Source: Nitrospirota bacterium (GTDB lineage Bacteria > Nitrospirota > UBA9217). Taken from it: a stretch of 64,000 nt of DNA. The DNA is taken from NCBI GenBank assembly GCA_963740085.1, contig CAVUCU010000001.1:1-64000 (forward strand). Reading direction: 5' to 3'. A program made the position numbers and the translations under genes. Under the pieces are notes generated by a model. The model did not search any database. It saw nothing but the letters and a program-made list of their open reading frames with translations, and was not told the DNA's origin. Shown here piece by piece: positions 5,177 through 47,586 of this stretch; the stretch's first letter is position 1; every line of letters begins with the position of its first letter.

Positions 5177-5363
5177 CCCCATCCCTCCCGGATCTGCATT
5201 TCTGATCATATCGTTGCCGCAATGTTAAGGGGGGTCAAGTCCGCAGATCAAGTAAGAAGTAAAAATTAAGAATTATGACATTTACGTCTTCCTTCAAACC
5301 TATTCCTTCTTACTTCTTCCTTTCACCTCTTACTTCTTCCTTCATACTTCTTCCTTGCTGTCT

Positions 5364-5528
5364 TTAATTCTGCCATGACAGGACAACGATAACAATCAAA
5401 ACAATCGCCGCCAGGATCCACCAGGTAACTTTTGGAAAGCGGCGTTTCTTTGCATTTCTGTCCCGTAATCCGCCCCGATCCCAGTCGATCTCCTTTTCCC
5501 GGTACCAGTCCCTGTCTTCCATTCCCAT
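5364..5528 (-). CDS. Small membrane protein (54 aa, MGMEDRDWYR N-terminus, one C-terminal TM helix)
   Basis: MGxxDRDWYR start motif plus hydrophobic C-terminus; the longer ORF overlaps the kinase. Confidence 0.7.
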   Translation of the reverse strand: MGMEDRDWYREKEIDWDRGGLRDRNAKKRRFPKVTWWILAAIVLIVIVVLSWQN

Positions 5529-5571
5529 GACAAAACCGTCTCCCAATCGAATTCCACAGCGCCCTGCGAAG

Positions 5572-6705
5572 CTACAGGGTAAAGAAGAACTCCGCCCCTT
5601 TGTCCACCGCTCCTTCGGCCCCGACGCGGCCTCCATGCCGATGAATGATGCGTCGCACGGTTGCGAGGCCGATGCCGGTTCCGGGAAACTGGGCCTCCTG
5701 GTGGAGACGCTGAAAGGGAATAAAAAGCTTTCCCGCGAAGTCCATGTCAAAACCGGCCCCGTTGTCCCTGACAAAATAGACCGGCATCCCCTCCTGCCCC
5801 CTGACCCCGAACTCGATCCGCGCCTTTCCGCGGCCGGCAGTGAATTTCACCGCGTTCCCCATCAGGTTCTCCAGAACGATCCGGAGCAGCCGTCCGTCGC
5901 CCGTGGCCCGGATCCCGGGCGCAACGATGAACTCAATGTCGCGATCCGGAAAGCATTTCGACAGGTTTTTCGTCACATCGCTTCCGAGCGCGCTGAGGTC
6001 GACGGTCTCGCCTCGCATCTCGCCCCTGGTCACCCGGGAAAGGGCCAGCAGATCATCGATGAGCTGATCCATCCGGGTGCCCGCGGCACGGATGCGCTCG
6101 AGGAACCCCCTCGACTCATTGTCGAGGCTCGCGGCGTGGTCAACGATAAGGGCCTCGCTGAAACCGCGTATGCTCCTGAGCGGCGCCTTCAGGTCGTGCG
6201 AAACCGAGTAGCTGAAGGACTCCAGTTCCTGGTTCGCGGCCTCCAGTTGGGCTGCGCGGCGGCGCAGCGCGTCTTCAACAGTCTTGAGCTTCGTAATGTC
6301 TTCCAGAACGAGCAGGGTGAATTCCGTATCCTCGTACCGGATGGGACTGGCGGTCACCATCATATGGACCTCGGTCGTCCCGCCGTTGTGCAGCAGCATC
6401 ATCTTCACGGTCTCCTGGTCCACCCTGTCCCCTTTAAAGGACCTGTTGACGGAGTTCCTTACCACGCATTCCATGCAGGCAGGGGCCCTTCCGCACCCTT
6501 CGGGGGTTTCGCTCGCATGGAGGCAATGCAGCGCCTCGCCGCCCCGTTTCAAAAGGACCATTTCCTTGTCAACGCCCAGAAGCCTCGACGCGGCAATATT
6601 CAGGTGATGGATCCGGACATCCTCGTCCACGATGAAGATGAACGAGGGGATGGTGTCGAAGAGGTGGTGGAGGAAATCGGCCTTTTGCAGGAGGTCTTTG
6701 GTCAT
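5572..6705 (-). CDS. PAS-domain sensor histidine kinase
   Basis: H-box SHDLKAPL, N-box ENLMGNAVKF, G-boxes DNGAGF and GTGIGLA; Cys-rich PAS (C..C..C..C). Confidence 0.92.
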   Translation of the reverse strand: MTKDLLQKADFLHHLFDTIPSFIFIVDEDVRIHHLNIAASRLLGVDKEMVLLKRGGEALHCLHASETPEGCGRAPACMECVVRNSVNRSFKGDRVDQETVKMMLLHNGGTTEVHMMVTASPIRYEDTEFTLLVLEDITKLKTVEDALRRRAAQLEAANQELESFSYSVSHDLKAPLRSIRGFSEALIVDHAASLDNESRGFLERIRAAGTRMDQLIDDLLALSRVTRGEMRGETVDLSALGSDVTKNLSKCFPDRDIEFIVAPGIRATGDGRLLRIVLENLMGNAVKFTAGRGKARIEFGVRGQEGMPVYFVRDNGAGFDMDFAGKLFIPFQRLHQEAQFPGTGIGLATVRRIIHRHGGRVGAEGAVDKGAEFFFTL

Positions 6706-6755
6706 TGGTTTCTGTTCGTCGAAAGAGTGAGATGACTGTGAGATCTATTGTTGAT

Positions 6756-6794
6756 GAGGATATTCCAATTGAGGGAAAAAGTAAAGCAGGTTTT
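6756..6794 (-). promoter_or_regulatory. Promoter module copy 2 (TTTACT-17-TATCCT) upstream of the kinase
   Basis: -35 6780-6785, -10 6757-6762. Confidence 0.6.
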
Positions 6795-6930
6795 GAGAAG
6801 CAGAAGCACAGGTCACGATCCTGTTTTTTTCTGCACCCCAGTTCACAGCTCCGCGCAGGGCATGATCCCGGTATTGATAACAAGCCTTTCGAGCATCGCA
6901 GCACTTCCCCTCGCCCGGGGGAACGGGCGA

Positions 6931-7133
6931 GGCCGTGTCTGCCTGGCTTTGTGGCGACTTCGGTCTTTTCTCCCCTGGCATGCTTGTGCGCGAACCTGTT
7001 CATGGGATGCAAGGATTCTGGAAAGTCAAAGAGTTCTGCCGTTCCCCTGCGCCGGGCAGCTCTGAGCGAAAGACACGCAGAGCAATGCTGCACAGATCAT
7101 AGTTAACCGGAACACGACAAGGCAGACACGGCC
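6931..7133. repeat. REP/MITE-like unit bounded by a perfect 14-bp inverted repeat
   Basis: GGCCGTGTCTGCCT 6931-6944 and AGGCAGACACGGCC 7120-7133. Confidence 0.55.
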
Positions 7134-7153
7134 GAGCCCTTTTTTAAAGGGCG

Positions 7154-7247
7154 AGGGTGGAGTGATGCGAGTCCTGCATATCAGGGTGGAGGCACTGTAC
7201 CTCTTCCCGGCATGCTGCGTGGCCGAGTGATGAGCTGCCCAAAAAAA
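7154..7247. repeat. 94-bp dispersed structured repeat, copy 2
   Basis: 92/94 identical to 3411-3504. Confidence 0.9.
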
Positions 7248-7392
7248 TCAATGCACACCCGGGACAAGCGCCAACTTAGATAATATTCGGGAAACAGGTT
7301 GTTCATGAAGAATAAAAAGCGATACATGCAATTAAGTGACCCGCAGATTCTCCCTCGTCTCTCAGTCGACTCTTTGTCGCTCCTCTCTCCCC

Positions 7393-8232
7393 TCAGTTCT
7401 TCGTCGTGCCCACAGCGAGGCCTGATATGATCCGGTCGAGGAAGAGCGTGTACATTATCGCAACAGGGATGCTCGCGATCAGCGCCCCGCCCATGAGCGC
7501 CCCCCAGTAGAAGACGTCCCCCCGCACCAGCTCCGTGGTCATGCCGATGCCGATGGTCTTCTTCGCCGAGTCCTGGATGAAGGAGAGCGCGTAGATGTAC
7601 TCGTGCGCCACGAGCGTGAAGGAGAAGACGACGACGGTGATGATGCCGGGTATGGAGAGCGGCAGAAGGATCCGCGCCATGGCCCCGATCCTGCTGCACC
7701 CGTCGACCAGGGCCTGCTCCTCGATGTCCTTCGGGATGGATTTGAAGAAGCTCATCAGGAGCCAGGTGCAGAACGGCACCGTGAAGGTGGGATATACGAG
7801 GATCAGGGACCACAGGGAGTTCTGGAGCCCCAGGATCGACACGATGCGCGAGAGCGGGATGAACAGGAGCGTCGGCGGGACGAGGTAGGTCAGGAAGATG
7901 CCGATGCCCACGCTCTCCCCCCACTTGCCTGCCAGGCGAGCCAGGCTGATCGCGGCGGGAACCGCCAGGATGACCGTGATCACCACGACGGCGACGCCCA
8001 CAAGGAAGGTGTTCAGCAGGAACCGGAGAAAGAGCGTCTGGTTGAAGAGCAGGTCGAGATGTTCCAGGGTCGGGCTTTCATTCAGCCAGAACGGGTTGTT
8101 GGTCGGGCTGAAGAGGTCGTGGCTCCGCTTGAACATGGTGATCAGCATGATGTAGAACGGCGCGGCCGAGAAAATAACGAAGATGCTCAGCCCGCCGTAG
8201 AAATAACCTTTTGATAATATTTTTTTCAGCAT
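7393..8232 (-). CDS. Carbohydrate ABC transporter permease (MalG-like)
   Basis: EAA loop IPKDIEEQALVDGCSR, about six TM helices. Confidence 0.92.
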   Translation of the reverse strand: MLKKILSKGYFYGGLSIFVIFSAAPFYIMLITMFKRSHDLFSPTNNPFWLNESPTLEHLDLLFNQTLFLRFLLNTFLVGVAVVVITVILAVPAAISLARLAGKWGESVGIGIFLTYLVPPTLLFIPLSRIVSILGLQNSLWSLILVYPTFTVPFCTWLLMSFFKSIPKDIEEQALVDGCSRIGAMARILLPLSIPGIITVVVFSFTLVAHEYIYALSFIQDSAKKTIGIGMTTELVRGDVFYWGALMGGALIASIPVAIMYTLFLDRIISGLAVGTTKN

Positions 8233-8279
8233 GATGTTATTTCTTCGCCATGAAACAGTAGTTCTCCTGTCTCCTGTCT

Positions 8280-9203
8280 TTACGTCACCACCGCCTTCTT
8301 CGCGATCCGCAGCACGACTGCCGCAATGCCCGCGAGCACCGGGAAGAAGAACAGAGAAACCGCCGCGCCCTGGGCCAGGTCGCCTCCCTGAATGCCCTTG
8401 AGGAACGCGAGGCTCGCCAGGACCTGGGTGTTGTTGTCCGGCGGGCCGCCCTTGGTAAGTACCCAGACCACCGTCATGTCGGTGAAGGTGAAGAGCGTGG
8501 AGAAAAGGACCGTGACGCTGATCACCGGCAGCAGGAGCGGCAGAACGATCTGGAAAAGCCTGCGGTAGTATCCCGCCCCGTCCATCTGGGCCGCTTCGAG
8601 GACCTCGCGCGGGAGGGAGTTCATTCCGGCGATGCGGATCATCGTGGCAAGGGGGAGGAGCCTCCAGACATGGACGAGGACGACCGACGCCATCGCCAGG
8701 CCGGGCCTTCCGAGCCAGTAGAGGTTGCTCATGGGGCCCAGCAGGTCACCGGGCTTTCCGAGCAGTCCCCAGGTGCGGAGCAGCCAGTCGATGGGGCTGA
8801 ACACCGAGTCCAGGAACCAGAGGTAGCCGATGGCGCCGAGGGCGATCGGAGCGGTCCAGGGAAGCATGATGAGGAAGCGGATGAGCCACTTGAAGCGGAA
8901 TTCACGCATCAGGAGCTCGGTCAGCATGTTCGAGAGCACGAGCACCAGGGCGATGGACGTGAAGGTGAAGATGCAGGTGTTCATCAGGGATGTCCGGAAC
9001 GCCGGGTCTTTGAGCACGGCCGTGAAGTTCCCGAAGCCGATCAGGTGATAATCGGGATTTCCCACGGTCACATTGCTGAAGCTGTACACAAAGGCCATGA
9101 CGAAGGGGAACCCCACCAGGAGGATCATGTACAATGCCACCGGGGCCAGCATCAGCGGGGCAAGGACCGACTCCCGCTCGAAAAGGCGCGGCCGGCGGCT
9201 CAT
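8280..9203 (-). CDS. Carbohydrate ABC transporter permease (MalF-like)
   Basis: LPREVLEAAQMDGAG; start MSRRPRLF overlaps the ATPase stop. Confidence 0.92.
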   Translation of the reverse strand: MSRRPRLFERESVLAPLMLAPVALYMILLVGFPFVMAFVYSFSNVTVGNPDYHLIGFGNFTAVLKDPAFRTSLMNTCIFTFTSIALVLVLSNMLTELLMREFRFKWLIRFLIMLPWTAPIALGAIGYLWFLDSVFSPIDWLLRTWGLLGKPGDLLGPMSNLYWLGRPGLAMASVVLVHVWRLLPLATMIRIAGMNSLPREVLEAAQMDGAGYYRRLFQIVLPLLLPVISVTVLFSTLFTFTDMTVVWVLTKGGPPDNNTQVLASLAFLKGIQGGDLAQGAAVSLFFFPVLAGIAAVVLRIAKKAVVT

Positions 9204-10201: not shown

Positions 10202-10415
10202 GGGATGTACTCACCGCAGTCCGATCTACCGAAGAACCGCTGAGATTACAGAGAAAAGTCCTTAACACGGACACGGCGACTTGAATCGCCAAGACGCAGA
10301 TCAGACTGCTGCATTATAGGAAACTAAGCCTTGCTCAGTGCAAATAGTGTAAAAACAAGCCGGTCTTTCTCTTTCTCTGTCCTTCGCGACTTCGCGGTAA
10401 ATCGCTTCTCATTGT

Positions 10416-11831: not shown

Positions 11832-12194
11832 AGTCTCCTCCTTGTATGGCACGAATTGTCAAATTCTAACCACAGAGAGCACAGAGAACATCTTGAAAAA
11901 TAAATCCTTAGATGCCTTCTCCGGCCTCCCTCCCCCTTCTTCTCACTTCAAAGTCTTTTGCTCCATAGCCGCAAAAAGCACATAATTCACAAAGGGGATC
12001 GTCTTTTTGTCTCCTTTGTGCCTTATGTGGCCATAATCAGAGAACGGGCTTACGATCTGTGTTCTCTTCAGCTTCCGGTATTCATCCTCGTTCTGACCAC
12101 GGAGTTCACAGAATTTTAAAATAGGTCCCGACCTGTCTTTTCGATCGAAGTGAGAAATCCCGGTTTTCCAGTCAATTGAAAGATCCATCATCCT

Positions 12195-13199
12195 TTACCG
12201 GGAAATATGATCCGCAAGCTCGAGCAGGCGCCTCGTGTACCCGTATTCATTGTCGTACCAGGACAACACCTTGACGACCCTGTCCATGAGGACCTTGGTA
12301 GCGTTGGCGTCCACGATGCCCGAATGCTCGTCCCCCACGATATCTGCGGACACCAGTTCGTCCTCGGTGTAACCCAGGATGCCCCTCATGTCGCCCTCGG
12401 AGGCTGTTTTAAAAGCGTTGTTCACCATCTCCCGGGTAACGTCCATTTCCACGCGCGCCGTGATGTCCGTGAGCGAACCGTTGGCAACCGGCACGCGCAC
12501 GGCGATGGCCGACATTTTTCCCTTGAGTTCGGGGATCACCCGTTCCGTTGCCGTTGCGGCCCCCGTACTGGACGGGATCAGGGAAAGCGCGGCAGCGCGT
12601 CCCCTCCGCCGGTGCTTGGGGGAAGATCTGTCGATGAGCGCCTGACTGGACGTGTAGGCATGGACCGTGGTGGCCAGGAGGTATTCTATCCCGAAAGCGT
12701 CGTTCAGCACCTTGACCGCCGTTGCCAGGCAGTTCGTGGTACAGGAAGCATTCGAGATGATGTGATGTTTTTTGGGATCGTATAGTCTCTCGTTCACACC
12801 CAGCACGACGGTCAGATCTTCGTTCTTTGCTTCCGCGCTGATGATGACCTTCGATGCCCCGGCAGCCAGGTGTTTTTCCGCGTCTTCCCTTTTCCGGAAG
12901 AGGCCCGAGCACTCCAGGACGATGTCGACACCGTGCGCCTTCCATGGCAGGTTGTCAGGTTCTTCTTCATGAGAGATCGCTATTCGCCGGGACCCGATCT
13001 CGAGATGATCCGGCCCTGTCCTTATCTCGAAAGGGGCCCGTCCATGAACGGAATCGTACTTGATCAGGTAGGCGAGGTCTTCGACCGGGGCCGGACTGTT
13101 TGCGGCCACGAGGATGAAATTCTTCGGCGGGTTTGATATGCACAGGCGCAGGGCCAGGCGGCCGATGCGTCCGAGACCGTTGATGGCAATCCGTTTTAT
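12195..13199 (-). CDS. gap: Type I glyceraldehyde-3-phosphate dehydrogenase; start codon reads ATA
   Basis: KRIAINGLGRIGR from 13199, catalytic ASCTTNCL, SWYDNEYGY; RBS GGAGG 6 nt before the ATA. Confidence 0.9.
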   Translation of the reverse strand: MKRIAINGLGRIGRLALRLCISNPPKNFILVAANSPAPVEDLAYLIKYDSVHGRAPFEIRTGPDHLEIGSRRIAISHEEEPDNLPWKAHGVDIVLECSGLFRKREDAEKHLAAGASKVIISAEAKNEDLTVVLGVNERLYDPKKHHIISNASCTTNCLATAVKVLNDAFGIEYLLATTVHAYTSSQALIDRSSPKHRRRGRAAALSLIPSSTGAATATERVIPELKGKMSAIAVRVPVANGSLTDITARVEMDVTREMVNNAFKTASEGDMRGILGYTEDELVSADIVGDEHSGIVDANATKVLMDRVVKVLSWYDNEYGYTRRLLELADHISR

Positions 13200-13412
13200 G
13201 ACGCACCTCCTCTTTGCGGGGGAAGTTCATGCCGAACACGCATGCAGGTCGTGAGAGAAATGCATGACCTGTTTATTACAGTATAATACATCATTCTAAA
13301 CTTTGGCGGAGTAACAGAAAAAATTCAGCGATCCAAAAAGATATTATTAAAATACAACCATGGTATTACGGAGGACTGCCGCCACCTGCACCCTGTTCAT
13401 TCCAGCGCGCGC

Positions 13413-17799: not shown

Positions 17800-18173
17800 G
17801 CTTGTTCCCTCCCGGTGCGTCCGGAGAAAGGAATGCGTTTCAGCTCGCGCACCAGGCGTTCAGCGTTTCAAAAAAATGTTCATTTGGCAACTATTCAGGA
17901 TGATACCGGGGAATACATAGTAACCGCAAAGAACAGCAGGAACGCAGAGAGACTTCAATGTCAATAATTCAAGATTCAAGCTTTTTCTTGAGTTCCTTGC
18001 GTTCTTTCGCGGCCAACTGATTCGACCTGAGTAGATACTTAATTCGATTATAGCGCATTTCAACCGTGGCGCTTCCAAGCGCTTCGATAGACCGTGCAGA
18101 TCACTGATTGACAGGGAAATGAGGGTGGAATCTCTCAGGGCAGGTCTTTTATTCCGGCATCCGCTTTTTTCAG

Positions 18174-21902: not shown

Positions 21903-22118
21903 CGCGGCCTCCTTTGCGATTGATATCTGCGGAATGAACTTTGTTTTTTTACGGGGATATGAGATTTACTATTTACGTCCGCCTGTTCGCCAGTCATCAC
22001 CCAGTCGGTTTGCTTCGTTTTAACGTCAATCCGAAAATCCTCGGTTCAGGTTACGTCCGTCTGTTCGCCTTTCATCATATCATCATACGGTCGATCCATA
22101 TCGCCTTAACGTCAGTCT

Positions 22119-22499
22119 TCACCCCTGATATTCCCTCAGCGTCTTCGTCCTCTTTGCCTTTGTCTTTCCCTTCTTCTCCGGCAGCGACAGCGCGTACTCC
22201 TTTCCTGTCCCCAGCCACTTTGCGAGCCCGGCCGCTCCCTTCCACCCCGCTTCCTGCACCATGACCCAGCCGCTCATCGGCCTGCCGGTGATATCAAAGG
22301 GCCGCACGTTCTTGTTCTTAAGGCTTTGCTCTCCCCTTTCCTTATCCATGCGCACGATCAGGCTGTCCTTGTGGATGCCGAAGGCCATGTTGCCCTTGAG
22401 CAGGTAGCACACGCCGCCAAACATCTTCTTCTTTTCCAGGTCCTTCCAGCGCTTTGCAGCGGCATCGATCATTGCTTCCAATTTTTCATTATAGGGCAT
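22119..22499 (-). CDS. TfoX/Sxy N-terminal family protein
   Basis: KKMFGGVCYLLKGNM, FDITGRPMSGWVMV, ALSLPEK. Confidence 0.88.
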   Translation of the reverse strand: MPYNEKLEAMIDAAAKRWKDLEKKKMFGGVCYLLKGNMAFGIHKDSLIVRMDKERGEQSLKNKNVRPFDITGRPMSGWVMVQEAGWKGAAGLAKWLGTGKEYALSLPEKKGKTKAKRTKTLREYQG

Positions 22500-22637
22500 A
22501 TTTGACTCCGTTGATGCAGACGGGAAACGACTTAATGCAGACAAGGATCGACGCAGAAGCGACCAGGCGACCTGTTAATGCAAAAAAACAGACGGGAATC
22601 GACGCGTCAGTCTTCACCCGGGGAGCCGCTTTTTTGG

Positions 22638-22677
22638 GAAGGATATCCCTATTGAGGTAAAAAGTAAAGCAGGTTTT
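22638..22677 (-). promoter_or_regulatory. Promoter module copy 3 (TTTACT-17-TATCCT) upstream of the TfoX gene
   Basis: -35 22663-22668, -10 22640-22645. Confidence 0.6.
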
Positions 22678-22689
22678 TAAACGTCAATT

Positions 22690-22743
22690 GAGTCTAAAGC
22701 GTCTCATGAGTTCATTGAGTTTATAGCGTTTGTAGGGCCTGGA
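22690..22743 (+). repeat. Degenerate nonamer tract GAGTYYATA
   Basis: Six units; same family at 28805 and 29633. Confidence 0.75.
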
Positions 22744-25800: not shown

Positions 25801-26199
25801 GTCCCGGACCTGGGGGGAAGCGGCTTCCCCTATCATTCCATGGCAATACGGGGAGACATCCACGAGGGCGTGTTCACCCTGGAGAAAGCCTACATCGGCG
25901 GGCGGTCCCTGGACATCATTGCAGAAGGCAAGATCGATCTGGGGAAGCAGCGGTTGGACCTCATCGTGCTCGTTGCGCCGTTTTCATCGATCAACTGGGT
26001 CATCCGGCACATTCCGTTCCTCGGGAAGATCATGAGCGGCACCCTGATCTCGATACCGGTCCGGGTGTCAGGCGATATGGCGAATCCGAACGTTGTATTC
26101 CTCTCACCCACGGCCGTGGGCTCGCGGATCCTGAAACTCCTGGAGAACATCATTAAACTGCCGGTGGATATCGTTTCGCCGCTGATGCCGAAGAAATGA
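22843..26199 (+). CDS. AsmA-like family protein
   Basis: N-terminal TM anchor, beta-rich repeated segments, C-terminal G.IDL...LDL.VLVAP...IPFLG..GD..NP.V. Confidence 0.88.
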   Translation: MTLRKKILLWLAAVMTVFLAAVIFLAPVYLNSKSAKGRIEAAVSKRLGGTMSFERLDLSLFPRPHISLTKLKLRYPRTFRGTLQSLNIYPQLLPLLSGKLRLAKIQVAEPDFRVILPASVSESTAEAPSLEETKKDIRTVLSYLEAIGPGLVEEMDNGKFLFRRSHRDFLSLKNVTVHFNAPPGDMKFLVKASTEQWGNFSLSGSYSFSEKMSQVRDLSISMGRSSLTGFSANLYWDRVPWLDMFSGRAEVALDELYSWLSSSESLTPFLQLVRLKRGVLTVSSLLGGGLIDHPETWRGTMTGEVRDVLAESRWLPAPVNLSTRFRIDDNTLEVTGLSAKLGSSSLDNISARFVKSKVPDFAVSEGRASFDLAELFRWRNRYEKAGPMLKDVSNLGGEISLSSLRMGGPVLQPAKWRLNITGEARGLVIDSPLLPASLAVSGRFALEENKITVSDTKVRLGTSSLSRVSASITGRDTPMLEIVNVNALIHAGELFQWRGRYPALNSVLSSVRELKGDLTLSSLGFRGPLLHPGRGKINAAGGLDHVVIDSSILPGPVGLASGDFRFVSDNLSFGLHEATILDSSLTGTAVISRITSTLLRTIDLSLNGNSGRKTLDWVFEKLELPPDLMIKTPIALRNSHLTWEGTKGLTFAGSISVPEGLAFLVDLTQHNTDLDIRRLVIKDQETNAAVTLNWQKQKADISYSGVMAQSTLSRIFEQGNFGKGSVNGDIHAVIHTDQPLRSRIKGTLEGSDIFIPWGMPVPTTIDKFAINADNDVLTVNTAEVTWGKNHYTMTGAATTSDEGIAFSMALKADGIDIQEIQQAMEQAGKKSTDQKVRSFPLPPIRGDLSADSSYVKFRSFIFAPAHAVITVDPDRVIMEFTDTRTCDISIPGSLLISRESISFSFTPTAKKETLGYTISCLTNMDAHVSGEYDLSSSFRSHGTGKELLSSLEGRVDFKARNGKIYHYPLLQKIFSVLSVLEIFRGRVPDLGGSGFPYHSMAIRGDIHEGVFTLEKAYIGGRSLDIIAEGKIDLGKQRLDLIVLVAPFSSINWVIRHIPFLGKIMSGTLISIPVRVSGDMANPNVVFLSPTAVGSRILKLLENIIKLPVDIVSPLMPKK

Positions 26200-26256
26200 A
26201 AAGCGACGAAGTCGCCCCTTCGTCGCCTCACCGTCGCGTTACGTCGGCCTTGTAGC

Positions 26257-26403
26257 CTACTTGTCCCCGATCAACCATTCCAGTACGAACCACGCCGCAA
26301 CCAGCCCCGCGATCAGAAAGAGGGTCTTCCCGACGTTCCGCCAGACACTGCCGTGTTCCGGTTCTTCCGGCGTTCCCGTTTTTTTACTCAGTTTGTTCTC
26401 CAT
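26257..26403 (-). CDS. Small membrane protein (48 aa)
   Basis: MENKLSK..TLFLIAGLVAAWFVLEWLI single TM helix. Confidence 0.55.
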   Translation of the reverse strand: MENKLSKKTGTPEEPEHGSVWRNVGKTLFLIAGLVAAWFVLEWLIGDK

Positions 26404-26467
26404 CCACATCCTTCGCCGGTTCTTGTCGCCTCTGTTCGCAATTGCTCCGTCGCCTTTACGTCGGCCT

Positions 26468-28240
26468 TTACCCGCTCGCCTTGATGACGCGGTAGATGGT
26501 TTCACTGAGGTCCTTAATTCTGTAGGGCTTGGTCAAGACGCCTTTGAAGCCATATTTCAGGAACTGCTCCATGACCGTATCATTGGAATACCCGCTTGAC
26601 ACGATCACCCTGGCACCGGGATCTATTTCGAGCAGTTTCGCAACCGCTTCCTTCCCTCCCATGCCTCCCGGTATGGTCAGGTCCATGATGACCGCGTCAA
26701 AGGGTTTCCCCGAAGCCCTGGCCTTTTGATAGACGTCCAGCGCGTTCTTTCCGTCGTGTGTCACGACGACATCATAGCCCAGGAACATAAGGATTTTTTT
26801 CGAGGACTCCCGTATCGCCTCATCATCGTCCATGACCAGTACCTGCCCGGCTCCCTTCAGAAGTTCTTCTTTCTTGACCTCCTTTGTCAAGACCTTCCCT
26901 TCCGAAGCGGGGAGGTAGATGGTGAAGGTCGCACCCCGGCCCAATACGGATGTCACGGTGATCTGGCCGTGATGTTTTTTTATGATGGAATAGGACGTCG
27001 CAAGACCGAGACCGCTCCCTTTCTGTTTCGTCGTAAAATACGGATCAAATACCTTAGGCAGATGTTCTTTTGCTATGCCGGTCCCGTGGTCTTCAATCGA
27101 GATTTTTACATATTTCCCTTTTTCCAGGGGAGGAACATCCAACGAGCCGAGCTCGACATTCCCGCCGATGACCCTGATCGAACCGCCTGCCTGCATGGCC
27201 TGGTCCGCGTTGATGATCATATTATTGACGACCTGTCTCAACTGCCCCGCATCGGCGTCAACGAGCCAGAGGTCTTGAGGAATGGAAAATTCGCACTTCA
27301 CGTTGGACCCGCGCAGGGAGAACTGCACCGATTCCTTTATGAGGTCCCCGACGGCCAGCGTGCTCTTGACCGGGCCTCCTCCTTTGGAAAAGGTCAAGAG
27401 CTGCAGGGTCAGGTCCTTTGCCCTGAGAGTCGCCTGCGCCGCCTCTTCCAGCGGTTCAAAGACCTTATTCTCGTGAACGGAATGCATCTTTGCCAGTTCA
27501 ACATTGCCCAGGATCCCCGACAGGAGATTGTTAAAGTCATGGGCGATCCCGCCGGCAAGAAGGCCGACCGACTCGAGCTTCTGTGCCTTGAGCAGCTCTT
27601 CTTCCATGGCCTTGCGCTCGGTAATGTCTATGATCATAGCCTGTACGGAAACGGTGCCGTCCCTGTTGTTAATAGGCGTATTGGTCAGGTGGTACCACCG
27701 GTTGTCCTTGGGGCTCTGCACTTCCCATTGAACGGTTTCACCCTGAAGCACCTTGTCATTCACGCACCAGGGACAGACCGAATCCTTTTCGTGCAGTGCT
27801 TCATAGCAGTTATGCCCGGTGGCGTCGTAACCCGTATGCTCTTTCAGCCGGTCGTTCATGAACTCGATGCGATGGTCCGGCGAGCAGATGTAGATAAAAC
27901 CGTCAAAGGCCTCGATCATGGCGCGGTACCTCGCTTCGCTCCGCGCGAGCGCCAGCTCGGTCTGTGTCCGTTCGGCGATCTCCTGCTGAAGCTGTCCGTT
28001 GATCCTTTTCAGCTCCGCCGTGTACCGCATAAAATATATGACGATCGGAGTGACGATCAAGGGCACGAACAGCGCGTCAATGCTGCCTATGATCAGCAGG
28101 TCCGGCGACATCCTTCCGTACCAGATAAAGCCTTGCACGGTATTCAGCAGGGCCGTAAACAGTTCCGAGATGACGACGGCTATCCAGACAAAATGCCAGG
28201 GATTTATCGGCCTCTTATTCTCAAGAATTTTTGTGATCAT
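26468..28240 (-). CDS. Hybrid PAS sensor histidine kinase/response regulator
   Basis: AHDFNNLL, PYFTTK, GSGLGLA; REC domain VLVMDDD, MDLTIPGG, KPY. Confidence 0.93.
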   Translation of the reverse strand: MITKILENKRPINPWHFVWIAVVISELFTALLNTVQGFIWYGRMSPDLLIIGSIDALFVPLIVTPIVIYFMRYTAELKRINGQLQQEIAERTQTELALARSEARYRAMIEAFDGFIYICSPDHRIEFMNDRLKEHTGYDATGHNCYEALHEKDSVCPWCVNDKVLQGETVQWEVQSPKDNRWYHLTNTPINNRDGTVSVQAMIIDITERKAMEEELLKAQKLESVGLLAGGIAHDFNNLLSGILGNVELAKMHSVHENKVFEPLEEAAQATLRAKDLTLQLLTFSKGGGPVKSTLAVGDLIKESVQFSLRGSNVKCEFSIPQDLWLVDADAGQLRQVVNNMIINADQAMQAGGSIRVIGGNVELGSLDVPPLEKGKYVKISIEDHGTGIAKEHLPKVFDPYFTTKQKGSGLGLATSYSIIKKHHGQITVTSVLGRGATFTIYLPASEGKVLTKEVKKEELLKGAGQVLVMDDDEAIRESSKKILMFLGYDVVVTHDGKNALDVYQKARASGKPFDAVIMDLTIPGGMGGKEAVAKLLEIDPGARVIVSSGYSNDTVMEQFLKYGFKGVLTKPYRIKDLSETIYRVIKASG

Positions 28241-28804: not shown

Positions 28805-28858
28805 AAGTCTAAAGAGTTTATAGGGTCCATTGAGTAAATAGAGTTAATGGAGTTTGTA
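28805..28858 (+). repeat. Degenerate nonamer tract GAGTYYATA
   Basis: Six units. Confidence 0.75.
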
Positions 28859-29528: not shown

Positions 29529-29632
29529 AGGGTTCAGTGACCTCCCCTTTTTGTTTAAAGCGTACTCCAAAAGAATGAATTTGGCAAGAGGTATCAGTTT
29601 GGGTGTCAGTTTTGGTCAGGGTGTGGTCTGGA

Positions 29633-29695
29633 GAGTCCATTGAGTCCATAGAGTTCATAGAGTCTATGGCGTCTATAGAGTCTGAAGAGTGTGCA
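29633..29695 (+). repeat. Degenerate nonamer tract GAGTYYATA
   Basis: Seven units. Confidence 0.8.
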
Positions 29696-29720
29696 GAGGC
29701 GAGAAGATGTCTGCTCAAGA

Positions 29721-30959: not shown

Positions 30960-31044
30960 GAGTACTCCTTAAAATCAGGGTTCAGAGTTCAGCGTTCAGG
31001 GTGAGCCTTGAACCGTGAACCTGACGACCTGATCACACGCAAAC

Positions 31045-31083
31045 AAAAAAGGAAACAGGGAATCTCATCGAGTTCCTATTTCC
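31045..31083 (-). terminator. Rho-independent terminator after pnp
   Basis: GGAAATAGGAACTC-GAT-GAGATTCCCTGTTTCC followed by TTTTTT on the minus strand. Confidence 0.7.
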
Positions 31084-31123
31084 TCTCTTTTATTTACACA
31101 GTGTCCTGTTTGCGACGGGAAGG

Positions 31124-33554: not shown

Positions 33555-33583
33555 AAAATATCATATTTACAGCGTGTTGTAAA
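33555..33583 (-). promoter_or_regulatory. rpsO-pnp promoter TTTACA-17-(TGa)TATTTT
   Basis: -35 33578-33583, extended -10 33555-33563. Confidence 0.55.
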
Positions 33584-33648
33584 GCATTTTATTCATGATC
33601 GGACGGATCCGACTGATCCGCCAAATCCGTCCGATAATAAAAAAAATT

Positions 33649-34530
33649 CTACGAAAAAACCAGATCGGGTTTGAGCACCCCGGCAACGATGCGTGCAAGT
33701 CCCAGGAGCCTGCCGGAAGGGCTGTGAAGCCTGACATGGTCACTGGCGATGTTTTCAAAAGACGAGGGACACGATATCTGGTTGCCATGCAGCACCCGTA
33801 CCGTCTCCGCCTCGCTGATCGGAATTGCCGGGAACGCGGCGAGTGCATCGTCCATCGGCGTGATCGCCCGTTCCCCGTCTCCTGACGCCATCATCGCCTG
33901 GAGCCGATCGAGTGTAATGGCGCGATCAATGCTGAACCGCCCGGAGCGCGTTCTTTCCAGGCCGGTCAGATGCGCTCCCATACCCAGGGCATCTCCTATT
34001 TCGGCGCACAGCGTGCGGATGTACACGCCTTTTGAGCATGCTACCGTGAGACTCGCCACGGGGTCTTCGAACGCCGTCAGCTCGATGCTGAATATCGTCA
34101 CCGGACGCGGCTTGAGCAATTCCGCCTTGCCTTCGCGTGCCAGCTTGTACGACGGCACCCCCGCCACTTTCACGGCAGAGTATGCCGGCGGGCGCTGCAT
34201 GACCGAACCGGTGAAACCCTGCAGAACTTCAGCGATCTTCCGCCGGTCGGGAGGCGCATACGACCTCGTTTCTTGTATCCGTCCATCGGCATCAAGGGTA
34301 TCGGTGGTCACCCCGAGCCGCATGGTCGCCTTGTACTCCTTCTCCCCTGCTTCAAGGTACTGCGCTATCCTGGTTGCCCTGCCCGCGCAGAGAACGAGAA
34401 CACCGGTCGCGAGCGGGTCGAGCGTACCCGTGTGGCCGATCCGCCGTTCATGCAGGATCCTCCGGACGCTCTCGACGACATCGTGAGAGGTCACGCCGGA
34501 CGGTTTGTTGATGTTAAGGACGCCGTCCAT
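33649..34530 (-). CDS. truB: tRNA pseudouridine(55) synthase
   Basis: GHTGTLDPLATGVL, CSKGVYIR. Confidence 0.97.
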   Translation of the reverse strand: MDGVLNINKPSGVTSHDVVESVRRILHERRIGHTGTLDPLATGVLVLCAGRATRIAQYLEAGEKEYKATMRLGVTTDTLDADGRIQETRSYAPPDRRKIAEVLQGFTGSVMQRPPAYSAVKVAGVPSYKLAREGKAELLKPRPVTIFSIELTAFEDPVASLTVACSKGVYIRTLCAEIGDALGMGAHLTGLERTRSGRFSIDRAITLDRLQAMMASGDGERAITPMDDALAAFPAIPISEAETVRVLHGNQISCPSSFENIASDHVRLHSPSGRLLGLARIVAGVLKPDLVFS

Positions 34531-35903: not shown

Positions 35904-36014
35904 TTTAATTCAGTAGTCAGTTGTCAGGAGGCAGGAGTCAGGAGAAGAAGGTTTAATTCAGAATTGTTTTGATGTTATTCCGGCTTCTGGATACTGACTT
36001 CTGGCTCCTGTCCT

Positions 36015-36296: not shown

Positions 36297-36435
36297 AGCC
36301 AGAACGTAAAAAGGCACGATTGCAAAATGCAGAATTCAAAATGGAAAAGTTAAAATGAACGGATATGAAATCATGGCCTGTGGCCATACCTCAATTTTGC
36401 AATTTGCATTTTGAAATTTGAATTATGCGGTTGTC

Positions 36436-39708: not shown

Positions 39709-39729
39709 CCTTGACCTACCTGACCATGT

Positions 39730-41088: not shown

Positions 41089-41303
41089 AAGCCTTTCTCC
41101 TCCTGATGGACCATTTATATAAATTCTTGAGAGATTAACTACCTAACCCGAACAAGCCTAAAACGAAAAGGCGTCTCTCGCGGAGCACGCAGAGTTAAAT
41201 CAACACCCTTCAGTCCTGGCCTTAACCGGGATCATTTCTTGAGCTCTTCTCCACAAACGCCGCCTCCGCGAGAAAATTTCTTGCCTCTTTGAAAAATCAA
41301 TGG

Positions 41304-41765: not shown

Positions 41766-41774
41766 TCGACCCCC

Positions 41775-42038: not shown

Positions 42039-42091
42039 TGCCGTATTGCAGCACTATTCTAATACACGTCTAATACACGGGAGGGAAATAC

Positions 42092-42373: not shown

Positions 42374-42509
42374 CGATAACGACTCAGGTGGATAGACGAG
42401 AGACTGAAGTTAGAGAGACTGAAGGTGGATAGGCTGAAGGGGAGTGTGTAAGGTTTTTACTTCTTCAGCCATCAGTCTTCATCCTCAATAACCTGCAGTA
42501 GTTACTTCC

Positions 42510-43199: not shown

Positions 43200-43303
43200 A
43201 AATAAACCTCCACAGTATCTTTAATTAAATTACACAACTTATTATTATTTTATGCTTTTTAATATTTAATGTAAACCATTATGTGTTTCGCTTGCCAGAA
43301 GTA

Positions 43304-43419
43304 GTCATACCCGTCTCAACCGCTTCCCGGGGATAAACTTTGCCCGTGAAAACGGCGGGCTTGTATCCAGGTGTCACGTGTATTTGAAACGACTGGATTC
43401 CCGTTTTCACGGAAATGAC
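43304..43419. repeat. Palindromic REP-type element (GTCATACCCG..ATCCAG..CTGGATTCCCGTTTTCACGGAAATGAC)
   Basis: Terminal GTCAT/ATGAC; internal CCGTGAAAACGG and its complement; dRS3/RPE-like layout. Confidence 0.7.
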
Positions 43420-43501
43420 GAAATAATCATGATTCAGCTCGTGATAAGTTGCGGTGAGCGCTGTTAGCCTGAACTCTGAGCATCAAACCCTTGGATCTTC
43501 C

Positions 43502-45661
43502 CTACCCTGTCCTGATCCTCTTCACATCAATGACCCCTTTTATCGCCTCGATGTTCTTGATGATCCTGTTCAGATGCTCCACATCCCTTATATCTATGGT
43601 GAAGGTAAGCGTTGCCTGCCGGTCCTCGTTGGTGGTGACCTCGGCATGTGTAATGTTCGCCTCTGCCGCGCTGATGGATGATGAGACGCTGGCAAGGAGG
43701 CCGGGCTTGTCCTTTGTCTGGACCGATATCTTGACCGCGTGAGCCCCGGCCTGCAGGTCTCCCCACGATACTTCCACCAGCCGGTCCTTATCAAAGGTAA
43801 GATCGCCGATGTTCGTACAGTCCACCGTGTGGATGGAGACTCCCCTCCCCCTGGTGATGAACCCGAGTATCTTGTCTCCGGGCACGGGATTGCAGCACTT
43901 GGAAAGATGAATAAGCATGTTGTCCATGCCGTTGATCTTCATGCCCCCGCTGCTGCTGGCGGGCTTTGCCCGTTTAAAGAACGACCTCTTGGGCTTGGGG
44001 GCCGGCTCGATGTGCACCTTGTCCGGAGCAAGTTTGTTGGCCACCTGGAGAGCGGATATCTTGCCGTAGCCGATGGCCGCAAACAGGTCTTCTGTCGTAT
44101 TCTGGGACAGCTCTTTCACGACACCGAGAAGTTCCTCCGATTTGAAGAATTTTGAGGGACTGAGTTCGTGCCTGCGGAGCTCTTTTTCGAGCAATTCCTT
44201 CCCCAGAAGCATGCTGCGCCTTCGCTCCTCGATCTTGAGCCACGCCTTGATCCTTGTCTTGGCCCTTGAGGTCTTGACGAATTTGAGCCAGTCGCGGCTC
44301 GGCGTGTGGCCTGCCTGGGTGGTGACCTCGACCTTGTCGCCGTTGCGAAGCTCGTGTTTAAGCGGCACGATCTTGCCGTTCACCTTGGCGCCAACGCACT
44401 GGTGACCGATATCAGTATGCACGCTGTAAGCAAAGTCCACGGGTGTCGACCCCAGAGGCAGTTCCTTTACGTCCCCGCGAGGCGTAAAAACATAGACCAC
44501 GTCCGGGAACAGGTCGCCCTTGACCGTTTCCATGAACTCCTTGGCGTCCGGGACGTCCTTCTGCCATTCCAGGAGCTGTCTGAGCCAGGCATACTGCTGC
44601 TCATCGCGCTGACTGATGGCTGATTTTTCCTTATACCTCCAGTGCGCGGCAATGCCTTCCTCGGCAAGGCGGTGCATTTCCTCGGTGCGGATCTGGAACT
44701 CGACCCGCTCCCCCTTGGGGCCGATGATCGTGGTATGGAGCGACTGGTAGAGGTTGGACTTGGGCACGCCGATAAAATCCTTGAAGCGTCCCGGAACGGG
44801 GGTCCAGAGCGAATGGATGAGCCCGAGGATAGCGTAGCAATTTACCTTGGTATCGGTGATGATCCTGATCGCGATCAGGTCGTAGATGTCTTCAAAGGCA
44901 ATCCCCTGCTTCTGCATCTTCTGGTAGATGCTGTAAAAGTGCTTGGGCCGGCCCTTTACCTCGCCCTTATACCCGTGCTCCCCGAGCTGCTGTTTCACGA
45001 TCTCGATCAATTCGTTGATATACGACTCGCGCTCGATACGGCGCTGATTGACCTTCTGGACCAGGTCTTCGTAGGCCTCGGGGTTAAGGTACATGAACGA
45101 AAGATCTTCGAGCTCGATCTTGATCCTGGAGATACCCATGCGGTTGGCGAGGGGAGCATAGATATCGAGTGTTTCCTGGGCAATTCGCTTCTGTTTATCC
45201 GGCGGGAGTGATTTGAGGGTGCGCATGTTATGCAGCCGGTCGGCCAATTTGATGAGAATGACCCTGATGTCCTTTGCCATGGCCACGATCATCTTGCGGA
45301 AGTTCTCGGCCTCGCGCTGTTCGCGGCTCTGGAGTTCCATGCGGGAGATCTTTGTCATACCATCCACCAGTCCCGCGACCTCCGCGCCGAACATCTCTTT
45401 GAGTTCTTCAGGTGTGGCAGTGGTGTCTTCGATGGTATCGTGAAGCAGGCCGGCCGCCACCGTGGCCGCATCGAGCTTGAGATTGGCGAGAATTGCGGCC
45501 ACTTCGATAGGATGGTTGAGATAGGACTCTCCCGAGAGACGCGTCTGTCCCTGGTGTACCTTGGCCGAGAAAATATAGGCGCGTCTCAGGAGGTCCACAT
45601 CGGCACCGGGATTGTAGTTTTGGATCCTCTCAACTATATCTTCGAGGCGAACTGAGGGCAT
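43502..45661 (-). CDS. rel: Bifunctional (p)ppGpp synthetase/hydrolase
   Basis: HD motif LLHDTIED, KLADRLHNMRTL, YQSLHTT, TGS, KCCNPVPGD, ACT. Confidence 0.96.
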   Translation of the reverse strand: MPSVRLEDIVERIQNYNPGADVDLLRRAYIFSAKVHQGQTRLSGESYLNHPIEVAAILANLKLDAATVAAGLLHDTIEDTTATPEELKEMFGAEVAGLVDGMTKISRMELQSREQREAENFRKMIVAMAKDIRVILIKLADRLHNMRTLKSLPPDKQKRIAQETLDIYAPLANRMGISRIKIELEDLSFMYLNPEAYEDLVQKVNQRRIERESYINELIEIVKQQLGEHGYKGEVKGRPKHFYSIYQKMQKQGIAFEDIYDLIAIRIITDTKVNCYAILGLIHSLWTPVPGRFKDFIGVPKSNLYQSLHTTIIGPKGERVEFQIRTEEMHRLAEEGIAAHWRYKEKSAISQRDEQQYAWLRQLLEWQKDVPDAKEFMETVKGDLFPDVVYVFTPRGDVKELPLGSTPVDFAYSVHTDIGHQCVGAKVNGKIVPLKHELRNGDKVEVTTQAGHTPSRDWLKFVKTSRAKTRIKAWLKIEERRRSMLLGKELLEKELRRHELSPSKFFKSEELLGVVKELSQNTTEDLFAAIGYGKISALQVANKLAPDKVHIEPAPKPKRSFFKRAKPASSSGGMKINGMDNMLIHLSKCCNPVPGDKILGFITRGRGVSIHTVDCTNIGDLTFDKDRLVEVSWGDLQAGAHAVKISVQTKDKPGLLASVSSSISAAEANITHAEVTTNEDRQATLTFTIDIRDVEHLNRIIKNIEAIKGVIDVKRIRTG

Positions 45662-45786
45662 ATGAACACCAAACTCCGAATATCAAGCACTAAATACTAA
45701 ATAAATAACAAAGCGCCATGCACAATAAAATAAACATTTTGGTGATTCGCTCATTGGATTTTGGAATTTATTGAGAATTTAGCGGG

Positions 45787-47586
45787 TTAGGATTTAGACA
45801 TTTCCTTTTCAGTTTTAATGTCCCTTATCTCCAACTCCACCGCTGTTGTTCCATTCCAGGTATTGAGGCGGGGAGTGAACACCGCGGCAAGACGCATTCC
45901 ATCCCATATCTGTTTGCCGAGAAGATGCCCGCGTTTGAAGGCAATCGCGTCGAGCGAAACGCCGCTCTGCTGCCGCAATCGCAGCTTGAGGTGGCCATTG
46001 CCTACGATCCGTGAAGAAACCACACTGAGGGCCCTCGCCCCCAGCCGGGGCTCGGGATTGCCCTGGCCAAAAGGACCCAGTTTTTCAATGTCTTCCATCA
46101 AATCGAGCGTTAACTCATCGAGTGTTACGGCGCCGTCCACGGAGAGCGTACGCACGAACCCTTGAGCACCGATCCGCTCCAGCACAAGGGCGCTCAGCCT
46201 CTCGCGGAACTGCGGGATATTCCCCTGTGCAATGGTAAATCCCGCAGCATACTTGTGTCCGCCGAATCCCATAAGCAGGTCGGAGCACCCGACCAGGCCC
46301 TCGTACAGGTCAAAACCCGGGATGCTCCGTGCCGAACCCTTGCCCATGCCGTCCTGGACGCAGATAAGCGCTGTAGGGCGATAAAATTCTTCGGCTATCC
46401 GTGAGGCAACGATCCCTATGACCCCCGCGTGCCACTTTTCGGATGACAGCACGAGCGCTCCCGCAGCGCCGGTATCGATCGCGCGACAGAGCCCGCGGGC
46501 GTCTTCCCCGATGCCCTCTTCCACGGACTGGCGCTCCCTGTTCACCGCATCGAGCGCCAGGGCCAGTTTCAATGCCTCTTCGCGCGAGCTTGTCGTGAGC
46601 AGGTTTAATGCCGCATCAGCCCTCTCCAGCCTGCCGCTCGCATTGATCCTCGGCGCCAGGGTAAAACCGACAACGCCCACGCCGATCTTCTTGTTATTCA
46701 GCCTTGATACCTGTTTGAGCGCGGCGATCCCCGGCCGCTGGGTTTCCGAGTCCGACGATAGCAGGTCAAGTCCATGCTTGACCAGGATCCGGTTCTCGCC
46801 CGTGATCTTGCCCACGTCGGCGATCGTACCAAGGGTCACGAGGTCGAGATAGGTCGTCAAGCGTTCATCGGTGCTGCTTACACCCAGAAGGGCTTGTGCG
46901 AGCTTGAAGGCAACGCCTACACCGGTCAGTCCGCTTACGAAATCCCGAAGAACAGGCGAAATGTCTGCAGAGAGAAGTCCGGGGTGAAGGACGGCGTAAG
47001 CATCCGGTAAGACAATTTCTAAATTCGGATGCTGTGGAAAATCGTTTCCTTTAGAATTTAGAAATTCGGACTTAGGATTTGTCGTAAACTCGTGGTGATC
47101 GGTGATGATCAGATCAAGGCCGATCGAGAGGGCTGATTCAGCCTCCCGAACAGCAGTAATGCCGCAATCTACGGAAATGACCAGTGTCGTTCCGGCGGTT
47201 TTTAATGTTTTCAGGGCATTTGCATTCAGTCCATACCCCTCGGTCATTCTGTCCGGGATATAGCAGTCCACATTCGCGCCCGATTGCTTAAGCGCCAGGA
47301 ACAGGAGGGCGGCGCCGGTGACGCCATCGACATCGTAGTCCCCGTACACCACGATCTTCTCACTACGCGCGATCGCCGTGCGAATTCGTCCGACGGCTTT
47401 TTCCATCTGGCTGAAGACGCCCGGGTCGGATATCGCCGACAGATCGCAGGCGAGAAAAGAGGATGCATCCGGGGCCCTGGTGATGCCCCGATTGACCATC
47501 AGCCTGGCAATGAGCGGATGCAGGCCTGTTTGTTCAGCGAGCGCGGCCGTAACGCCGTCATCAGACCCGGCAAGGACCCATTTCAT
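45787..47586 (-). CDS. recJ: ssDNA exonuclease RecJ with ~20-aa insertion after DHH
   Basis: YGDYDVDG, EGYGLN, TDHH, LGTIADV, PRINASGR, GSARS, GGHKYAAG. Confidence 0.95.
   Translation of the reverse strand: MKWVLAGSDDGVTAALAEQTGLHPLIARLMVNRGITRAPDASSFLACDLSAISDPGVFSQMEKAVGRIRTAIARSEKIVVYGDYDVDGVTGAALLFLALKQSGANVDCYIPDRMTEGYGLNANALKTLKTAGTTLVISVDCGITAVREAESALSIGLDLIITDHHEFTTNPKSEFLNSKGNDFPQHPNLEIVLPDAYAVLHPGLLSADISPVLRDFVSGLTGVGVAFKLAQALLGVSSTDERLTTYLDLVTLGTIADVGKITGENRILVKHGLDLLSSDSETQRPGIAALKQVSRLNNKKIGVGVVGFTLAPRINASGRLERADAALNLLTTSSREEALKLALALDAVNRERQSVEEGIGEDARGLCRAIDTGAAGALVLSSEKWHAGVIGIVASRIAEEFYRPTALICVQDGMGKGSARSIPGFDLYEGLVGCSDLLMGFGGHKYAAGFTIAQGNIPQFRERLSALVLERIGAQGFVRTLSVDGAVTLDELTLDLMEDIEKLGPFGQGNPEPRLGARALSVVSSRIVGNGHLKLRLRQQSGVSLDAIAFKRGHLLGKQIWDGMRLAAVFTPRLNTWNGTTAVELEIRDIKTEKEMSKS

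Follow-up and report, generated by a model that had tools for sequence, protein, structure and literature searches.

Inverted periodic arms around two small genes and hairpins of related build in operon gaps of a Nitrospirota genome

The 64,000-nucleotide (nt) stretch of DNA analyzed here, hereinafter the window, comprises positions 1 to 64,000 of contig CAVUCU010000001.1 (assembly GCA_963740085.1) from a Nitrospirota bacterium of the UBA9217 lineage. It has a G+C content of 55.5%, and most of the long open reading frames (ORFs) with a Pfam assignment are on the minus strand. The window includes the gene block rimP-nusA-(YlxR/L7Ae-like)-infB-DUF503-rbfA-DHH-truB-rpsO-pnp, and comparison of the infB protein with species-representative genomes places it within a clade of uncultured Nitrospirota. 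Our subject is a set of short elements with inverted, often periodic arms that either enclose a small gene or occupy gaps between genes without one. Two gene-bearing cassettes of this build are found in the window, one for a GxxExxY protein (a PD-(D/E)XK nuclease) and the other for an S23p/Avd-like four-helix-bundle protein, and 11 gaps had been flagged in a preliminary description of the sequence as empty states of the same class of element. For comparison, we used 79 related loci, designated L and totaling ~1.4 Mb, the best of which, by infB identity, are L001 (83%), L004 (87%, partial), L002 and L015 (80%), L011 (79%), and L009 (78%).

The gene of the GxxExxY cassette is identified by Pfam PF13366 (E 2e-38) and TIGR04256 (E 9.7e-40), and its product keeps the conserved D...E-x-K residues of the family (alignment A3). 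A PDB sequence search with this protein gave no match, and its structure prediction was poor (mean predicted local distance difference test score 45.5) and was not used. The end of the gene falls within the hairpin. The same 9-nt, ATCTGCG-type unit makes up four solo hairpins and a lone left arm, with the copies of the family adjacent and in tandem (Table 1); the solo hairpins had been overlooked in the preliminary description. An alignment of three of these gene-less hairpins with the cassette (alignment A4) indicates that they equal the cassette minus ~447 nt, the missing segment being bounded on each side by the 5-nt direct repeat TCTGC, which is the core of the unit. Each gene-less hairpin retains in its loop the final codons of the GxxExxY gene together with its stop codon, so that these hairpins derive from a gene-bearing copy. 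Thus, for this family, the empty state that had been proposed is directly observed as loss of the cargo gene, and this is the sole direct case. The TCTGC repeat is explained equally well by deletion between repeated units and by target-site duplication. Among the 120 closest of the at least ~8000 GxxExxY homologues, 43 of the 96 C-terminal tails that could be parsed carry the translated unit motif, which argues that the unit travels with the gene lineage.

The second cassette lies between HlyD and ABC genes. Its ORF belongs to PF05635 (E 5.4e-35) and TIGR02436, and the protein matches a solved Xanthomonas S23p homologue (PDB 2gsc, E 4.7e-28). The left arm (62047-62126) consists of ten 8-nt units with a GCGT core that is kept in 9-10 of the 10 units, whereas two spacer positions agree in just 3-4 of the 10; in the minimum-energy fold, this arm and the right one (62465-62540) pair across ~400 nt, over the gene. 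A trace of the arm in N-terminal extensions is weak, with 25 of the 111 parsed heads of four-helix-bundle homologues starting with MR. Both cargo genes, then, are enclosed by inverted periodic arms, as originally proposed.

This build is not confined to the window. Each of the two cargo proteins has at least ~8000 homologues, and plasmids searched with tblastn contained 45 matching records with the four-helix-bundle protein as query and 8 with GxxExxY. From these, we took a non-exhaustive sample of 11 and 7 records, respectively, chosen by rank and organism spread, and added the two window genes (n=12 and n=8). Inverted-complement flanks were detected in 9 of the 12 four-helix-bundle cases (0/300 shuffles) and in 5 of the 8 GxxExxY cases (at most 3/300). 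Each of the 12 four-helix-bundle cases has a periodic downstream flank (0/300), with period 7 in nine and period 8 in three, and the GxxExxY flanks mostly have period 9; the arm units, of 7-8 nt and 9-10 nt, respectively, differ case by case. The sampled hosts belong to Cyanobacteriota, Gemmatimonadota, Bacteroidota, Spirochaetota, Pseudomonadota, and this Nitrospirota genome; the flank test gave no significant result for the Spirochaetota case, and the cassette build recurs in the other five phyla. The cassettes occupy tight operon gaps, such as those between the ribonucleotide reductase beta and alpha genes, an HlyD-like secretion protein and an ABC transporter, cas10 and cmr3, cas6 and cas4, and fabD and fabG, and are sometimes antisense to the host operon. 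The preliminary description held that structure rather than sequence is conserved, and the units do differ between lineages; within a lineage, however, the unit is kept, and one element (see below) has sequence homologues in two other genomes. A GxxExxY gene of Sphingomonas has CGCGAAG-type arms, which resemble the CGC.AAG group of that description. Two cyanobacterial plasmids (L090 and L091) carry four-helix-bundle cassettes within CRISPR-Cas operons (cas6/cas4 and cas10/cmr3).

We examined the 11 flagged gaps with two statistics (Table 1). To assess the pairing of the arms, we folded the transcribed strand as RNA and compared it with 200 dinucleotide shuffles, and we assessed periodicity by the best period of 6-10 nt in each arm against 2000 shuffles, all counts being the numbers of shuffles that reach the observed value.

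Table 1 Cassettes, hairpins, and repeat arrays in the window. Fold, z-score and shuffles out of 200; periodicity, shuffles out of 2000 for the left and right arms.
Site	Coordinates	Strand	Feature	Location or remark	Fold	Periodicity
	53-135		Solo hairpin, 9-nt ATCTGCG-type family, copy 1	Arm matches, alignment A4; window starts inside array		
	458-982	-	GxxExxY (PD-(D/E)XK nuclease) cassette	Arms 458-486 and 954-982; gene 499-918		
	1013-1094, 1139-1219, 1250-1330		Three further ATCTGCG-type solo hairpins	Arm matches, alignment A4		
	1375-1403		Lone ATCTGCG-type left arm	Arm matches		
2671	2671-2786		Pure heptamer array, CAGGGGT x16.7	Tandem Repeats Finder (TRF) score 225; no inverted partner		
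5250	5247-5356		Hairpin, heptamer-periodic arms	Between epimerase gene and upstream ORF; TRF rows; right arm far longer than left	-28.4 kcal/mol; z -4.15, 0/200	Period 7 in each arm; 0, 0
10235	10235-10402		Branched structure, non-periodic	ABC ATPase - solute-binding protein gap	z -1.31, 23/200	1609, 279
11965	11965-12034		Hairpin, weak 9-nt periodicity	Solute-binding protein - GAPDH gap	z -4.08, 0/200	44, 167
17922	17922-18013		Hairpin, CGC..AG-type arms		z -3.77, 1/200	Weak; 407, 104
	22687-22740		Third array of related 9-nt unit	Orientation as in the next two arrays; no inverted partner		
	28811-28855, 29626-29697		Two 9-nt arrays, equal orientation	Flank normal-sized nitroreductase gene; no inverted partner		
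30976	30976-31032		Heptamer (TCAG+3) hairpin	Downstream of conserved pnp terminator (about 31045-31088), just upstream of next gene's ribosome-binding site	z -3.76, 3/200	0, 6
33598	33583-33650 (core 33596-33635)		Strong hairpin	Between truB stop and conserved rpsO promoter-like site (33583-33555); only two 9-nt units; inverted repeat I2	z -7.12, 0/200	9, 90
35910	35910-36010		Heptamer (TCAG+3 / CTGA+3) hairpin	Fills DUF503-rbfA gap	z -3.16, 0/200	Period 7 in each arm; 0, 0
36320	36319-36428		Heptamer (CAAAATG-type) hairpin	Fills infB-DUF503 gap; inverted repeats I1 and I3	z -1.91, 6/200	2, 0
41176	41160-41285	+	Discrete element, ~125 nt	rimP-nusA gap	z -1.45, 13/200	Non-periodic; 281, 1414
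42401	42398-42487	+	Hairpin	Between HU and Smr genes	z -1.91, 10/200	1270, 61
45670	45670-45803		Weak candidate	recJ-relA gap; few CTAAAT / ATTTAG words	z +0.11, 105/200	52, 74
	62044-62540	-	Four-helix-bundle (S23p / Avd-like) cassette	Between HlyD and ABC genes; ORF 62126-62536

All 11 sites are located in gaps of the Pfam gene map, in agreement with the preliminary description, and its account of the arms applies to some of them. Complementarity beyond that of shuffles is clear at six sites (5250, 11965, 17922, 30976, 33598, and 35910; z -3.2 to -7.1, 0-3/200) and borderline at three (36320, 42401, and 41176; 6-13/200), the exceptions being 10235 and 45670. Clear periodicity of both arms is found at four sites (5250, 30976, 35910, and 36320), in all cases with period 7, and weaker periodicity at 33598, 11965, 45670, and 17922. 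The description as periodic inverted arms suits about half of the list, and the remainder are plain or doubtful hairpins. At 42401, the left arm repeats GACTGAAG with uneven spacing, and TRF reports a 15-nt unit x2.9; in the gap between the solute-binding protein and GAPDH genes, CACAGAGA-type units lie farther out than the hairpin. At least seven distinct units occur within 64 kb, although a separate unit for each site, as had been suggested, is contradicted by the TCAG+3 heptamers shared by 2671, 30976, and 35910 and by the recurrence of CGC..AG nonamers. The arrays that lack an inverted partner are further members absent from the original list.

The predicted stems are 22-57 pairs long. We rejected their interpretation as intrinsic terminators because the periodic arm stems do not match the pattern of a G+C-rich stem followed by a U-run: between 28000 and 47900, none of them is listed as a terminator, the weak pattern matches are only short stem-loops within the loops of 36320 and 41176, and canonical terminators are located elsewhere, after pnp and upstream of rimP. 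The claim that these elements are not terminators is thus upheld. TRF density per locus did not separate the elements from the background, nor did a sliding-window fold score across the window distinguish them, and an ungapped inverted-repeat finder was too strict for bulged arms and was kept solely as a shuffle control, in which it detected, at equal score, seven inverted repeats in the real window and none in the block-shuffled one. An Rfam gathering scan of the window yielded only tRNA-Sec, with no family for any of the elements, no rRNA, and no integron attC match, no dedicated attC test having been made. Pfam identified no transposase gene in the window, without a search aimed at a parent element, and no ORF6N gene among the 139 ORFs scanned.

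In the best relatives, the gene order from rimP to pnp is kept, and that of the HU-Smr-RidA-relA-recJ side is not. Downstream of pnp, one canonical terminator is common to the window and five relatives, and the 30976 hairpin is an extra piece between this terminator and the next ribosome-binding site that is absent in the five. In the truB-rpsO gap, eight relatives have only a conserved promoter-like stretch, to which the window adds the strong hairpin; in L006, the same gap has ~260 nt added, with inverted arrays of the 9-nt unit of the window GxxExxY family. A hairpin of 77-114 nt occupies the DUF503-rbfA gap of the window, L001, L002, L003, L004, L009, and L011; the gap is 11-13 nt long in L005, L006, and L015 and measures ~6-65 nt in distant genomes (by tblastn coordinates). 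On the infB tree, this distribution requires at least three changes. In this gap, the window, its sister L001, and L002 contain recognizably related heptamer hairpins (alignment A2). The infB-DUF503 gap is as short as 4-8 nt in three genomes and reaches 153 nt, and further periodic hairpins are present in relatives, for example, at 1732-1826 and 7098-7384 of L001. Outgroups have tight gaps at these positions, relative to which the operon hairpins represent gains and losses.

The non-periodic element at 41160-41285 matches positions 7795-7925 of L005, also in the rimP-nusA gap, only when reverse-complemented, and the alignment (A1) takes in the asymmetric, non-palindromic loop; a third copy is located at a different site in L002 (6564-6663; nhmmer E 0.0081). 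L002 is labeled Betaproteobacteria; its infB falls inside the Nitrospirota clade beside L004, and its gene order is that of the window, so this bin is probably mislabeled or mixed.

A known system with a comparable build is the intervening sequence of 23S rRNA genes. In the available text on Coxiella (PMC4990558), this sequence is described as selfish, with an S23p ORF and a 28-bp terminal-inverted-repeat stem; next to the ORF are tandem GACAGAT heptamers of variable copy number, at the first of which RNase III cleaves the stem in vitro. The window elements resemble the intervening sequences of Coxiella, Leptospira, and Salmonella in the terminal inverted repeats that form a long stem; an S23p ORF in the loop is shared by the cassette at 62044-62540 only, the 11 listed sites having no such ORF. 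They differ in being located between protein-coding genes rather than in rRNA helices, in having arms that are arrays of up to ten units, and in the use of the same build by a second cargo family, the GxxExxY nuclease.

Correia, ERIC, and Chunjie elements are 100-150-nt sequences with inverted ends that reside in operon spacers, are co-transcribed, and fold in the mRNA, some being cut by RNase III. The 41160-41285 family, with three copies in three genomes, behaves like a miniature inverted-repeat element of this kind; in contrast, most of the window elements are single-copy by sequence in the window and the 79 loci and have internally periodic arms, and we know of no transposase relative for them. 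Arrays of short units in spacers are known as well, among them the cyanobacterial short tandemly repeated repetitive (STRR) sequences, which are heptamer repeats. Heptamer repeats near start codons are discussed in the accessible part of a Nostoc preprint (10.1101/2022.06.06.494920). In the text seen of Rehm et al. 2015 (PMC4692102), Nostoc is reported to have GGGGA(C/T)T heptamer arrays, and Xanthomonas 70-75 pairs of convergent GGGAATC arrays per genome that can form stem-loops, lie mostly between co-oriented genes near the end of the upstream ORF, and vary in length among strains. These are intergenic heptamer arrays, as in the window, with the difference that each genome has one dominant G-rich unit, read as quadruplex-forming, whereas the window contains many units within 64 kb. 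The terms 'S23' and 'four helix' are absent from the text of that article available to us, and no link to cargo genes is made there. TAACTGA arrays of unknown role occur between genes in Beggiatoaceae, Cyanobacteria, and Bacteroidetes (MacGregor, PMC4679880, available part); these, too, are 7-nt units in spacers near start codons with a patchy distribution across phyla, and their CTGA core resembles the TCAG/CTGA heptamers of the window, but they are nearly all direct, with one indirect repeat among 170 sets, and no hairpin build or cargo is described in the part of that source consulted. As to the cargo, PDDEXK_3 is listed as being of unknown function in the portion seen of a survey of PD-(D/E)XK proteins (PMC3424549).

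Taken together, these observations make it somewhat probable that most of the flagged sites belong to a single widespread class of small palindromic cassettes, as members without a gene or as remnants, or are closely related to it. In its full form, such a cassette consists of a small gene, for either an S23p/Avd four-helix-bundle protein or a GxxExxY PD-(D/E)XK nuclease, between two inverted arms; each arm is a short array of 7-10-nt units in which the core is conserved and the spacer positions vary. The ORF-bearing 23S rRNA intervening sequences are built in the same way. The direct copies of the unit could allow loss, and perhaps gain, of the cargo via recombination or slippage, and ongoing slippage would reshape the arrays until each site had a unit of its own. 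Insertion into an operon gap would do little harm because the paired arms rejoin the flanks and the long stems are likely RNase III substrates, as in rRNA intervening sequences; by this analogy, RNase III probably cuts the stems. We infer that the unique heptamer hairpins once held, or can receive, cargo.

Several results weigh against this interpretation. Among the sampled cassettes, three four-helix-bundle cases do not conform, one reaching only 42/300 and two being not inverted (one of them with direct arrays on both sides), and three of the eight GxxExxY cases have no inverted flanks. In the window, folding at 10235 and 45670 does not surpass that of shuffles, and neither 10235 and 41176 nor the left arm of 42401 is periodic by the 2000-shuffle test. 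The stems are not biased toward the sense strand: of 26, 15 are more stable in the sense and 11 in the antisense orientation (Wilcoxon p 0.30). The stems of 35910 and L001 fold better in antisense by 15-18 kcal/mol, and the absence of bias does not positively support RNase III processing. The check for cargo in orthologous gaps was negative: the 79 related loci yielded no gene of either cargo family at any position, whether by tblastn or with hidden Markov models built from 120 homologues of each family. Because of this result, past cargo of the operon hairpins can only be inferred; of the original proposal that they are empty states of one element class, the existence of the class and the loss of GxxExxY cargo stand, and cargo in the related gaps does not. 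Furthermore, blastn found no similar copy of the heptamer hairpins in the 79 loci or elsewhere in the window, and visual inspection of the truB-rpsO and pnp sites revealed no clear target-site duplication. The heptamer hairpins may be mobile, and an origin in place by slippage accounts for them equally well.

Such growth in place is the main rival explanation: polymerase slippage would have produced the tandem arrays of 7-9-nt units, and template switching in imperfect palindromes would have transferred each change to the opposite arm, with the result that every hairpin grew where it is and has its own unit. The hairpins would never have held a gene, cargo having settled in some of them later. 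We consider this unlikely, although for the heptamer hairpins it is a serious contender, and the corollary that these are landing pads rather than scars is equally doubtful. The uniqueness of every heptamer hairpin within the 1.4 Mb examined and the lack of cargo in any related gap speak for it, as do the unit-level turnover between the related DUF503-rbfA hairpins of the window, L001, and L002 and the existence of arrays without an inverted partner (2671-2786, 28811-28855, and 29626-29697). So do two literature reports, each in the part of the source available: among the long simple repeats of prokaryotes, heptamers are the most frequent, with slippage named as their cause (PMC4679880, citing Mrazek 2007), and the 70-75 convergent GGGAATC pairs of each Xanthomonas genome are at mostly conserved positions and vary in length (PMC4692102). 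Growth in place is, however, at odds with the solo hairpins at 53-1330, whose loops keep the end of the GxxExxY gene and which are hence derived from a gene-bearing copy; with the concentration of array variation in the spacers while the core is kept, which plain slippage and random decay do not predict; and with the presence of the discrete 41160-41285 element in three genomes and in both orientations.

A bolder version of the cassette interpretation, which we regard as quite improbable, is that the arrays are recognition or homing sites of the cargo proteins, each lineage binding or cutting hairpins or cruciforms of its own unit and copying itself in. If so, much of the unexplained intergenic load of heptamers and nonamers in bacteria would be the footprint of an undescribed family of homing cassettes; STRR, the GGGAATC pairs of Xanthomonas, the TAACTGA arrays of Beggiatoa, and the window hairpins would all be part of it, with 7-8-nt units marking the footprints of four-helix-bundle cassettes and 9-nt units those of GxxExxY.

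Alternatively, the hairpins could be host RNA signals selected in place, either as stems for processing or stabilization of mRNA or as a means to keep stop and start codons close for coupled translation. Several of them do reside inside the rimP-nusA-infB-DUF503-rbfA-truB operon and begin 3-17 nt past a stop codon, the DUF503-rbfA gap has some hairpin in 7 of 11 clade genomes, and the stem length is sufficient for RNase III. Nevertheless, host selection is disfavored because the transcribed strand does not give the more stable stems; three clade genomes and seven distant ones do without a hairpin in gaps of ~6 to 65 nt, neither sequence nor position is conserved past the closest relatives, and genes enclosed by this build look selfish and often run antisense to the host operon. 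We accordingly give this explanation even less credence. Finally, the notion that these are chance low-complexity sequences in AT-rich spacers and not real elements, although in line with the shuffle results for 10235 and 45670, where it stands, and with the three borderline folds, is refuted for most sites by the six clear folds, the four sites with both arms periodic (0-6/2000), and the lack of inverted repeats in the block-shuffled window, and is hardly credible as a general account.

We found no paper that links GxxExxY or S23p/four-helix-bundle genes to periodic arms, subscription-only papers being outside the scope of the search. The present comparison indicates a single cassette build common to the 23S rRNA intervening sequences and two very large protein families of unknown role, and this shared build ties both families to the tandem repeats of spacers, the origin of which has been puzzling in cyanobacteria, Xanthomonas, and Beggiatoaceae. 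If the link is true, it would explain the harmless presence of repeats inside essential operons, help annotators to spot spurious ORFs that read through the arms, and suggest simple ways to find the substrates of the GxxExxY nuclease and of the S23p/Avd-like protein.

Several other repeats and small genes in the window deserve mention. The 2671-2786 array contains four-G runs, of a kind shown to form quadruplexes in Xanthomonas and Nostoc according to the accessible text of PMC4692102. The same-orientation arrays around the nitroreductase gene are a direct-array counterpart of the inverted build, comparable to the four-helix-bundle case of Pseudanabaena (L090). A 93-nt intergenic sequence is present in two copies (3412-3504 and 7155-7247) of ~98% identity, each followed by an A run, and may be another repeat family or a small RNA; a 38-48-nt repeat recurs with 88-92% identity at three intergenic sites (1452-1499, 6757-6794, and 22631-22678). 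The TfoX_N gene (22122-22544) is flanked by a perfect 12-nt direct repeat, the left copy of which (22110-22121) abuts the gene and the right copy (22605-22616) lies ~60 nt past its other end, in a gap that also has a duplicated 19-nt motif; this gene may be another small cassette. An ORF of 82 amino acids (26260-26505), with a partial match in L001 (59% identity), is flanked by GTCGCC-type direct repeats (26197-26260 and 26420-26470). The selenocysteine tRNA is located at 48519-48611 (Rfam 52.6 bits) and was missed by ARAGORN. The GAPDH frame (13110-13200) stays open upstream across the NAD-binding glycine motif, and neither ATG nor GTG nor TTG occurs in it after the preceding stop; the gene probably has an unusual start codon.

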